Assembly: GCA_002327985.1 (NCBI GenBank)
Contig: DCVM01000029.1
Span: forward strand, 12,547-76,546
DNA: 64,000 nt
DNA from: Syntrophaceae bacterium UBA2188
GTDB lineage: Bacteria; Desulfobacterota; BSN033; UBA1163
Reading direction: 5' to 3'
The translations under genes were made by a program, and so were the position numbers. The notes under the pieces were generated by a model that made no database searches, was not told the DNA's origin, and worked only from the letters and a program-made list of their open reading frames with translations. Of the stretch, positions 16,990 through 18,150 are shown one piece after another; within the stretch, counting starts at the first letter, position 1; every line of letters begins with the position of its first letter.

Positions 16990-17080
16990 ACTTCTTCTGC
17001 TTCGGCAACCCGGCCATCCCAATAGGACCCGTGGCTTTCCGTCCCACGATCGCTCGTGGTTTGGCTTTATCGGTGAATCT
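16990..17080 (-). ncRNA. c-di-GMP-I (GEMM) riboswitch-like element A
   Basis: The minus-strand RNA reads AAAGCCAAACCACGAGCGAUCGUGGGACGGAAAGCCACGGGUCC...GGCCGGGUUGCCGAAG. This matches the Vibrio Vc2 aptamer almost motif-for-motif (GGCAAACC...GUGGGACGCAAAGCC...CGGGGUUACCGAUGG). Confidence 0.65.
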
Positions 17081-17109
17081 GACCTATTTAATTGTTTGAT
17101 TATGATATG

Positions 17110-17126
17110 AGCAATTTCAGTGCCAA
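17110..17126 (-). promoter_or_regulatory. sigma-54 (-24/-12) promoter driving riboswitch-like leader A
   Basis: The minus strand reads TTGGCACTGAAATTGCT. This is an exact match to TGGCAC-N5-TTGC, about 25 nt upstream of the aptamer. Confidence 0.55.
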
Positions 17127-17320
17127 AAGGGATAAGATGCTTAAACCCATTGATTTTTAAAGATTTATTTAAAAATTGAAATTTTAAAAAAAAGGGAGTT
17201 GTGACCTTTTTTGTCTCGAAGAATAAATATTTATTGAATCATCTTGGAAGGTTGGGTTTTAAGGAGAACATTTAAAAACATATTGCATTTCCCCTTTATT
17301 AAAAATCAAAGCGTCCCCCG

Positions 17321-17932
17321 CTACTTTTTAGGTTTTTTGAATCTTTTTTGTTTTTCCCAAACGCGCCTTTGAGCTTCCCCAGCATTTTCATATTTCCCAG
17401 GAGCGTTTTCAACATTTTCTTCGGCAACATTTGGTGTTGCCGCGAGTAAAAGACTAACTTTAATGCTGCGTGCGTGATTATCGCCACCCTCTTTTATATA
17501 TTCGACCGTAACGGGCCTCCCATTTTTTAAATCACTAAAAGATGCCTTCTGTGCATAATCCGTTTTAATGCTTGTATCCTCTGAGACGAGAAAAACCATA
17601 TCCTTCGCTTCGCCCGTAACGAAAATCATCCCTGCACCAACTGTACTAATCCTTCCACTAAACAATAAGGGCGTACCCTGGTCAACTGGGCTGGGAAGAG
17701 GATTTTCAGTCGTCTTGCTTTCTATTTTTTTCTCTTCAATGATAGGCTTTGATTCTTCCAGGAGAGGCCTCCGTTCTACCTGTGGTCCATATTTTTCTGG
17801 AATCCTTGAATGGTCATCCGTGAAATGAACAGTTCCTTTCTCATCAACCCATTTATAAACCTCCGGATGGGCTAAAAAAGGCGTTATTAAGAAACCCAAA
17901 GTTAATATAGCTATTAAAACTGTTTTTCGCAT
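17321..17932 (-). CDS. DUF4124 domain-containing secreted protein
   Basis: A signal peptide is followed by HPEVYKWVDEKGTVHFTDD, the DUF4124 hallmark. The track ORF starts at 17956. Confidence 0.65.
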   Translation of the reverse strand: MRKTVLIAILTLGFLITPFLAHPEVYKWVDEKGTVHFTDDHSRIPEKYGPQVERRPLLEESKPIIEEKKIESKTTENPLPSPVDQGTPLLFSGRISTVGAGMIFVTGEAKDMVFLVSEDTSIKTDYAQKASFSDLKNGRPVTVEYIKEGGDNHARSIKVSLLLAATPNVAEENVENAPGKYENAGEAQRRVWEKQKRFKKPKK

Positions 17933-18059
17933 AGTCTTCCCTCGCTTTTCCTTCATTTAAGGAATATTTGCCCGTACAGAAAGCCCCAATGCTTCCCACG
18001 TTAGAAGGGAGAAGACTTTCTAACGGGGTTTACAAAAACAAAAAAACCGAACTACCAGA

Positions 18060-18150
18060 GGTTCATCCTTCGGCAGCTCGGCCATCTTTTTTAAAGACCC
18101 GCCGCTTTCCGTCCCACCCTTACGAATGGTTTGGCTTTATCGGGTCACTT
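18060..18150 (-). ncRNA. c-di-GMP-I (GEMM) riboswitch-like element B (5' leader of DUF4124 gene)
   Basis: The minus-strand RNA reads AUAAAGCCAAACCAUUCGUAAGGGUGGGACGGAAAGCGGCGGGUC...GGCCGAGCUGCCGAAGG. It has the same conserved blocks as element A and Vc2. It shares ~75% identity with element A over ~75 nt. Confidence 0.65.

Follow-up and report, generated by a model that had tools for sequence, protein, structure and literature searches.

Two neighbouring class-I c-di-GMP riboswitches with predicted opposite effects on transcription termination in a Syntrophaceae bacterium

The window analysed here is a 64,000-nucleotide (nt) stretch of contig DCVM01000029.1 of Syntrophaceae bacterium UBA2188 (assembly GCA_002327985.1); all coordinates are those of this whole stretch. 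On its minus strand two short RNA elements, R1 and R2, lie in the leaders of a gene for a secreted DUF4124 protein and of ORF93, an open reading frame (ORF) for a 93-amino acid (aa) orphan protein, respectively. We consider it likely that R1 and R2 are two independent, functional class-I riboswitches (GEMM-I) for cyclic di-GMP (c-di-GMP), acting through transcription termination and with opposite signs, such that high c-di-GMP would raise the DUF4124 protein and lower ORF93. What was observed directly is the membership of both RNAs in the family, a structure with covariation, the binding-site nucleotides, mutually exclusive helices and conserved associations with genes and promoters. Ligand, polarity and promoter usage we infer from the sequence, with homology and folding as the basis for the ligand identity and the switching direction.

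Two full-length c-di-GMP-I aptamers on the minus strand

The entire window was scanned with cmscan against all 4227 families of Rfam 15 at gathering thresholds, and three matches were returned across the 64 kb: R1, R2 and one nhaA-I RNA. R1 (18144-18068, minus strand, 77 nt) and R2 (17074-17000, minus strand, 75 nt) both have RF03167, the c-di-GMP-I-GGC model, as best match, with 72.4 bits (E=3e-15) and 69.2 bits (E=3e-14) against a gathering score of 59, and both span model positions 1-80 of 80. With full-model scores above the gathering score, the two RNAs belong to clan CL00126. Two more matches from the same clan, one for each element, lay above their own gathering scores behind RF03167 in the clan competition, and four were seen at E<=10; the two hidden matches are most likely RF01051, because the gathering score of RF03168 is 65.9 bits and that of RF01051 only 35.

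An earlier note on this DNA, made from the letters alone, had described two GEMM-I-like elements about 1.07 kb apart on the minus strand. The full-length Rfam matches, whose aptamer starts are 1070 nt apart, bear this out, and the blocks singled out there, GCCAAACC, GUGGGACGGAAAGC and GCUGCCGAAG / GUUGCCGAAG, are all found on the minus strand in both elements. GCCAAACC had been taken for a tetraloop-receptor arm; the Rfam structure line assigns it instead to the P2 hairpin base, AAA bulge included. The note had also proposed a search with RF01051: the match to the clan stood, at the scores given above and over the full length, but RF01051 was not the top model, as RF03167 wins. Its general reading, that these are class-I c-di-GMP riboswitches, is supported by the Rfam matches, by the 5' leader position and by the promoters and expression platforms that each element has of its own.

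Conserved structure and ligand-binding residues

The structure was examined on an alignment (A1) of R1, R2 and 25 relatives, 27 sequences placed at Rfam coordinates, in which pairs were counted on the Rfam structure. Of the relatives, 21 came from a search pattern that fixes the helix-base motifs, and the informative pairs are thus those that the pattern left unconstrained, in the P2 stem, P3 and P1. Standard pairs were present in 93.4% of the 621 cells, as against 80.8% in shuffles, and 12 of the 23 pairs had changed on both sides; the covariation score of 0.39 (0.16 in shuffles) was reached by none of 500 shuffles, and sliding the 3' partners by 1-3 columns reduced pairing to only 24-47%. 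Folding inconsistent with covariation, which the earlier note had named as an outcome that would speak against its reading, was therefore not what was found. In A1 the inter-helix pair is invariant; it joins the C in GGGACG to the second G in the bulge GAUGG/GAYAG and corresponds to C44-G83 of the Vibrio cholerae Vc2 aptamer, a universally conserved Watson-Crick pair (PMC4744006). The P2 loops are of the GNRA type, GUAA in R1 and GCGA in R2. Rfam scores, covariation and the conserved gene context described below rule out chance matches or pseudo-aptamers.

In order to derive the meaning of 'GGC', the consensus lines of RF01051 (...AAaG-GC...GACGC-A-AAgC...UgC-C-gaa), RF03167 (...AAAG-GC...GACGC-G-AAgC...UGC-c-gaag) and RF03168 (...AaaU-gC...CGc-A-AAgC...UGU-C) were compared on a tandem array of aptamers, locus L123 of our collection. 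Because the three lines differ at these places, the three letters of the variant name correspond to the equivalents of Vc2 G20, A47 and C92, which are ligand-contacting residues of the c-di-GMP-I riboswitch (PMC4744006, PMC5888326). Read from the Rfam alignments, the triad is G/A/C in R1 and R2 alike, canonical for c-di-GMP: the G at the A47 equivalent (model position 37) that defines RF03167 is replaced by A, and the A at position 20 that defines the Geobacter GEMM-Ib riboswitches is replaced by G. With this triad, c-di-GMP would be the expected ligand of both RNAs. The sole change from the RF01051 consensus beside the binding site is a compensated flip of G21-C46 to C-G, present in both. A pattern scan for the flipped form, with one genome per species, gave at least 120 loci in many phyla, mostly Thermodesulfobacteriota, and among the matches listed position 47 was A in 132 of 133, the lone exception not being aptamer-like.

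It is hardly credible that the two RNAs belong to the orphan c-di-GMP-I-GGC variant and bind a ligand other than c-di-GMP. RF03167 does score best for both, well above its gathering score, but the feature that names the variant is the G at model position 37, where R1 and R2 carry A; RF03167 is also the best model for more than 20 other aptamers with A at position 47, and three almost identical neighbouring aptamers in L123 are assigned to RF01051, RF03167 and RF03168, respectively. On account of these A47 aptamers and of the mixed assignment in L123, the 'GGC' label is best explained by score competition between related models, and, going by the residues themselves, it is misleading and should not be taken to mean 'orphan ligand'. 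The possibility that one or both aptamers sense 3',3'-cyclic GMP-AMP (cGAMP) like Geobacter GEMM-Ib, or respond promiscuously to c-di-GMP and cGAMP, we regard as improbable. It would suit a deltaproteobacterial host, as cGAMP-selective GEMM-I variants were found in that group (PMC7266159), and the flip of G21-C46 to C-G, which both RNAs have beside the binding site, might affect the choice of ligand. Against it stand the G at position 20 in both RNAs, the very high frequency of the flipped pair, whose loci (at least 120, in many phyla) all have the G/A/C triad, and the PilZ c-di-GMP receptor encoded nearby. The cGAMP-selective variants described by Kellenberger and by Nelson in 2015 are said to have A at position 20.

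R1 as a predicted ON switch for a DUF4124 gene

A promoter-like site is located 17-35 nt upstream of each of the two aptamers. For R1 this is a sigma-70-like promoter, TTGATT-16-TATGAT (18195-18168, minus strand), which was found by a consensus scan with 9 of 12 matches and ends 24 nt before the aptamer. By itself the site is not significant, with 5 sites against 4.4 expected; a similar layout, TTGAYTGA...TATGATAT / TGATGATAT, occurs upstream of R1-type aptamers in L130 and L131.

The R1 expression platform (18083-18035, minus strand, from the minimum free energy (MFE) fold) is a terminator hairpin at 18083-18045, with 13 base pairs (bp) and a 3-bp extension, followed by U7GU5. Its 5' arm (18083-18068) consists of the 3' strand of aptamer P3 together with P1, the overlap falling at aptamer positions 62-77. 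Left free, the RNA folds into the terminator (MFE -40.8 kcal/mol, terminator pair probability 0.997), and with the aptamer enforced (-16.6 kcal/mol) the terminator is unable to form. The same terminator design is present in L130, L131 and L076, and GCCGGGUUGCC...GGCAAxCCGGC followed by a U tract is common to many loci of the pattern scan, where it represents a common ON design. In the platforms of R1 and R2 alike a GC-rich hairpin directly precedes the U tract, as in intrinsic terminators, and both are placed in a 5' leader in which the platform competes for strands of the aptamer.

According to this model, the R1 transcript would start from the sigma-70-like promoter; without c-di-GMP the 3' half of the aptamer would serve as 5' arm of a strong intrinsic terminator, and with c-di-GMP bound this strand would be kept in P3/P1, the terminator blocked and the DUF4124 gene transcribed. 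Since the ligand-held P3/P1 strand excludes the terminator, R1 is probably an ON switch for that gene.

The gene (17932-17321, minus strand; 203 aa; PF13511, E=5e-9) encodes, as had been noticed before, a DUF4124 protein. Its layout comprises a signal peptide, the DUF4124 domain, a disordered linker and a C-terminal OB-fold beta-barrel, modelled by AlphaFold with a pLDDT (a per-residue confidence score) of 93-95 at residues 89-160. The best solved structural matches of the barrel are CusF and SilF (TM-score 0.64-0.75 on the target, root-mean-square deviation ~2.5 A, E ~1e-3), with 16-19% identity to these periplasmic Cu/Ag chaperones. These predictions point to a product that is secreted or periplasmic and carries an OB-fold domain. 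It has at least 100 homologues, and in L130 and L131 the whole unit of promoter, aptamer and terminator is found again upstream of DUF4124 homologues of 62-67% identity.

R2 as a predicted OFF switch behind a sigma-54 promoter

Upstream of R2, at 17125-17110 on the minus strand, we found an exact match to the sigma-54 consensus (TGGCAC-N5-TTGCW, with the GG of the -24 and the GC of the -12 element at exact spacing), with the sequence TGGCAC-TGAAA-TTGCT. The exact consensus occurs twice in the window, where 0.03 occurrences are expected, and none of 100 shuffles reached two. Wherever an ORF93-orthologous locus includes upstream sequence the motif is conserved, in some loci with one mismatch, and rpoN itself is encoded in the window (1111-2562). 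No sigma-54 activator or activator-binding site for R2 was identified in this analysis; only an IHF-like box, AATCAATGGGTTT, was judged by eye at 17155-17143 (minus strand), tentatively. It has the pattern ATCAA-N4-TT, which, likewise judged by eye, often precedes the -24 element of R2-type loci, among them L027, L028, L052, L084 and L140. A sigma-70-like sequence at R2, TTGGCA-16-CATAAT, was set aside: it overlaps the sigma-54 element, and CATAAT is absent from L140 and L141, where -24/-12 is kept. A further sigma-54-like site, TGGCATTGGATTTGCT at 16448-16463 on the plus strand, antisense into the 3' end of ORF93, has one mismatch, is not conserved in orthologous loci and was attributed to chance.

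Folding placed the R2 expression platform at 16999-16948 (minus strand). It is composed of a small hairpin (17000-16984) and of a terminator with the 5' arm GCCCGUGG (16983-16976), the 3' arm CACGGGC (16965-16959) and the tract U4CAU5 (16958-16948). The terminator stem of 7 bp (GCCCGUG/CACGGGC) takes up no strand of the aptamer, and the two can form together (-37.4 kcal/mol when the aptamer is enforced). GCCCGUGG is also complementary to the 5' strand of aptamer P3, CCACGGGU (17034-17027), the sequence of which is repeated in the terminator 3' arm. The two folds are near-isoenergetic, with -45.0 kcal/mol for the MFE containing the terminator and -44.0 with the antiterminator enforced; as long as the 3' arm has yet to be transcribed, the nascent RNA has the antiterminator as its MFE fold, as have 9 of 10 related R2-type leaders, L140 being the exception. 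The R2 aptamer is 95-96% identical among orthologous loci, and GCCCGUGG is kept as terminator 5' arm in distant genomes with different loops, tails and downstream genes.

The R2 transcript would start from the sigma-54 promoter and would therefore also require an enhancer-binding activator. Without c-di-GMP, CCACGGGU and GCCCGUGG would form the antiterminator, and a 49-codon upstream ORF and ORF93 would be transcribed; with c-di-GMP bound, P3 would be locked, GCCCGUGG would pair with CACGGGC and transcription would stop at the U tract. As the ligand in this scheme locks P3 and frees GCCCGUGG for the terminator, we read R2 as a probable OFF switch for the 49-codon ORF and ORF93.

ORF93 (16790-16509, minus strand) is the small ORF that had been noted after the second element. 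Its homologues form 23 clusters with identities of 63-89%. No Pfam family matched it even at E<=5, a profile search of the PDB found no relative, and its AlphaFold model is unreliable (pLDDT 43.5). JGI labels some of the homologues 'YrrD', an assignment not reproduced here, and an N-terminally extended 129-aa form starting at TTG was rejected, as its frame has stop codons in L136, L140 and L141. A GEMM-I aptamer lies ~200-280 nt upstream of the ORF93 homologue in all seven loci with upstream sequence (L134-L138, L140 and L141).

From the terminator to the start codon of ORF93 there are 157 nt, and here the loci share 83-87% identity, compared with 80-84% for the ORF93 coding core and 43-55% downstream of the gene. 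This stretch contains a conserved open frame of 49 codons (MRNYLINKIIGFQYHLRKVIGKK..., 16926-16777, minus strand) that overlaps the start of ORF93 by 14 nt. This is the only frame open in all six loci, and 11 of the 23 variable sites are at its third codon positions. No conserved Shine-Dalgarno sequence precedes it among the loci compared, and for this reason we list the ORF as tentative. The conserved stretch could encode a small basic protein, or it could represent a further RNA element.

A possible sigma-54/riboswitch cassette in other genomes

In 129 aptamers of the pattern scan with at least 130 nt of upstream sequence we counted same-strand sigma-54 motifs, allowing one mismatch. Thirteen aptamers had one 20-80 nt before the anchor, against 0.47 expected from the background rate of the same loci. 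The R2-type subgroup, in which P2 is almost fixed (CCACGAG-NNN-UCGUGG), accounts for nine of the 13; these come from at least eight other genomes, of Thermodesulfobacteriota, Syntrophaceae, Syntrophorhabdus and a Zixibacteria metagenome-assembled genome (MAG), L027 and L052 being from one genome. The first genes downstream of these nine mostly code for small proteins of 55-100 aa; L045 and L063, for example, have a pair of paralogues of ~60 aa, and in L027, L052 and L121 the proteins are Cys-rich.

From these data the R2-type unit may well, with a chance slightly short of even, be a distinct, sequence-constrained cassette placed upstream of unrelated small proteins, among them Cys-rich ones and the ORF93 family, and working as an 'activator signal AND NOT c-di-GMP' gate, in which enhancer-dependent initiation would be followed by c-di-GMP-triggered termination. 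The order we tentatively assign to it, with the same reserve, is IHF-like box, sigma-54 promoter, GEMM-I aptamer, small hairpin and a terminator whose GCCCGUGG competes for P3. No description of a sigma-54 promoter joined to a GEMM-I riboswitch was found in the literature searched, the coverage of which was incomplete, and this coupling is the only point that we regard as mildly novel.

The Cys-rich proteins of L027, L052 and L121 are 63-68 aa long and share the motif CPF[HY]R...YCDL...C..D..FC; they come after the cassette, in some cases several in a row. In L121 a response-regulator receiver domain is joined to the Cys-rich part. The pattern scan also brought up arrays of three or four GEMM-I aptamers ~75-335 nt apart, in L123 (7167-7512, minus strand; a Desulfosudis oleivorans MAG), L035 (3661-4165) and L112 (5826-6260). 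In the 120 pattern-derived loci, tblastn turned up no relative of ORF93 or of the DUF4124 protein next to an aptamer.

Relation of the two units to each other

R1 groups with L076, L130, L131, L015 and L101, and R2 with L027, L052, L121 and others. Because the two RNAs fall in different subgroups, each common to other taxa, they are, as judged by their sequences, not recent duplicates of each other and are members of one family. The earlier note had correctly seen that promoters and platforms differ, R1 having a sigma-70-like promoter and a terminator that overlaps the aptamer, and R2 a sigma-54 promoter and a separate terminator. Two of its further suggestions did not hold. It had taken two such elements in this lineage to be notable; GEMM-I is abundant there, and with at least 120 loci of the same subtype, mostly in Thermodesulfobacteriota, two nearby riboswitches are not notable in themselves. 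It had also regarded the paralogues flanking one gene as a regulatory arrangement; R1 and R2 units occur apart elsewhere, and no DUF4124 gene is called upstream in the ORF93-homologue loci of other metagenomes. The adjacency of R1 and R2 therefore looks incidental and specific to this genome.

Two other ways of reading R2 were weighed. We think it unlikely that R2 serves mainly as a c-di-GMP-dependent insulator at the end of the DUF4124 message rather than as leader of a sigma-54 transcript of its own, and the detailed version, in which at high c-di-GMP R1 would pass polymerase through DUF4124 and bound R2 would halt it before ORF93, appears to us no likelier. What speaks for it is that the two units are on the same strand, that after the DUF4124 stop codon there is just one weak hairpin, of 4 bp and with a U-rich tail, and that no significant structure is predicted for the spacer of 200 nt (z = -0.38); the other R2-type loci with ORF93 homologues, however, keep the sigma-54 element where no DUF4124 gene is called upstream, for which reason we regard R2 as a self-contained unit. 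Ligand-bound R2 might also stop read-through from DUF4124, a minor extra effect in this genome only. There is likewise a small chance that the polarity is misassigned, for instance that R2 controls translation of the upstream ORF, or that the complementarity of GCCCGUGG is incidental and the terminator constitutive. All evidence on polarity is thermodynamic folding, in which the full-length R2 favours the terminator (pair probability 0.89) over the antiterminator (0.10), and L140 has no antiterminator in its nascent-transcript MFE; yet GCCCGUGG is kept across distant taxa with varied loops, tails and genes, which is unexpected for a plain terminator, and the repetition of a P3-like sequence in the 3' arm is the classic three-segment riboswitch platform.

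Other features of the window

The PilZ protein that had been pointed out as fitting a c-di-GMP theme is indeed encoded in the window (41932-41549, minus strand; PF07238, E=5e-13). The second exact sigma-54 consensus, TGGCACATTGCTTGCA (42021-42006, minus strand), is 73 nt upstream of the start codon of this PilZ-domain gene; by these motifs, two c-di-GMP-related units, the PilZ gene and the R2 unit, both appear to be sigma-54-dependent.

The third Rfam match of the window, the nhaA-I RNA (RF03057, 34247-34310, plus strand; 43.6 bits against a gathering score of 37), is ~170 nt upstream of a 746-aa ORF (34481-36721), which has only a weak Vps62 match in Pfam and is not the expected cation transporter.

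As to the host, the MetK encoded here is 88-92% identical to proteins from 'Deltaproteobacteria bacterium RBG_...' and 'Thermodesulfobacteriota bacterium' MAGs, and the window sequence is also present in another UBA MAG, GCA_002402385.1 (L001), and in several metagenome runs.

Discussion

With R1 and R2 a well-known riboswitch class gains two members in a phylum in which it is common. Like Vc2 and the other RNAs of RF01051 they have a two-hairpin aptamer with a GNRA loop on P2 and an AAA bulge, the contacts of G20, A47 and C92 and the C-G pair between the helices, and they occupy a 5' leader position from which a terminator would control the downstream gene. For this class, ON as well as OFF examples were reportedly described by Sudarsan in 2008. 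They are unlike Vc2 in the flip of G21-C46 to C-G, the short P3, the RF03167 assignment and the GYRA tetraloops (GUAA, GCGA); a GYRA-loop sub-type of GEMM-I without the canonical GAAA/receptor pair is said to have been described by Weinberg in 2007. Overall sequence and length resemble those of the GGC variant RF03167, the top-scoring model, which was reportedly defined by Weinberg and colleagues in 2017 and for which we know of no established ligand; unlike R1 and R2, the variant has G at the A47 equivalent. The c-AMP-GMP riboswitches of Geobacter (GEMM-Ib) share the fold and the broad host group, and are often terminator-based ON switches before genes for secreted or extracellular proteins, as is proposed for R1; they differ in having A at position 20, where R1 and R2 have G.

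For R2 the nearest comparison is with FleQ, a c-di-GMP-responsive enhancer-binding protein at sigma-54 promoters (PMC3424551). In both cases c-di-GMP and sigma-54-dependent initiation would act on one gene; unlike in the FleQ system, the c-di-GMP input at R2 would follow initiation and would operate through an RNA terminator switch rather than through the activator protein. For the target of R1 the only studied DUF4124 protein found in our literature search is TfpC of Neisseria gonorrhoeae, a periplasmic protein needed for type IV pili (PMC7593972). The R1 target shares with it a signal peptide and the DUF4124 domain, to which the similarity is confined; the CusF-like OB-fold domain is specific to the R1-target family, and no pilus genes are adjacent to the R1 target.

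Several observations weigh against the view that two functional c-di-GMP riboswitches of opposite sign are present. In R1 the terminator is favoured over the aptamer fold by 24 kcal/mol, and ON switching would accordingly have to be kinetic; the nascent RNA folded with ViennaRNA yields only 8 of the 23 consensus pairs, with the register of P3 shifted; and P3 contains a G-A mismatch. The R2 copy in L001 (10860-11090) has a G-to-A change in P3 that results in a C-A mismatch. A simple terminator scanner flagged neither terminator, which is accounted for by the internal loop and G-U pairs of the R1 stem and by the 11-nt loop of R2. No aptamer at gathering score was found beside the DUF4124 homologues of L127, L132 and L133. 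A regular-expression search, too crude to exclude them, found no GGDEF, EAL or HD-GYP motifs, as in diguanylate cyclases or phosphodiesterases, in the ORFs of the window, and some deltaproteobacterial GEMM-I RNAs with G20 reportedly bind c-di-GMP as well as cGAMP.

The G-A in P3 (GCGGCGGG...CCGAGCUGC) is common to the R1-type subgroup of R1, L076, L015, L131 and L130, other members having C-G, and may be a conserved non-canonical pair. In the L001 sequence a run of N interrupts the R2 leader, and the contig breaks off within ORF93.

For the annotation of the family, many canonical c-di-GMP-I aptamers with the flipped G21-C46 pair are labelled 'GGC' by clan competition in Rfam, and mining of 'GGC' hits for new ligands would be misleading unless position 47 is examined. 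For the host, an uncultured deltaproteobacterium of sediment or groundwater, the locus presents two small RNAs (75-77 nt) that are predicted to respond in opposite ways to one messenger, and would add two uncharacterised families, the secreted DUF4124 and OB-fold protein and the 93-aa orphan, to the c-di-GMP regulon. If the R2-type cassette is real, it would point to an undescribed sigma-54/c-di-GMP co-regulon of small proteins and, once confirmed, would offer a simple natural two-input gate and a handle on small proteins with no assigned function.

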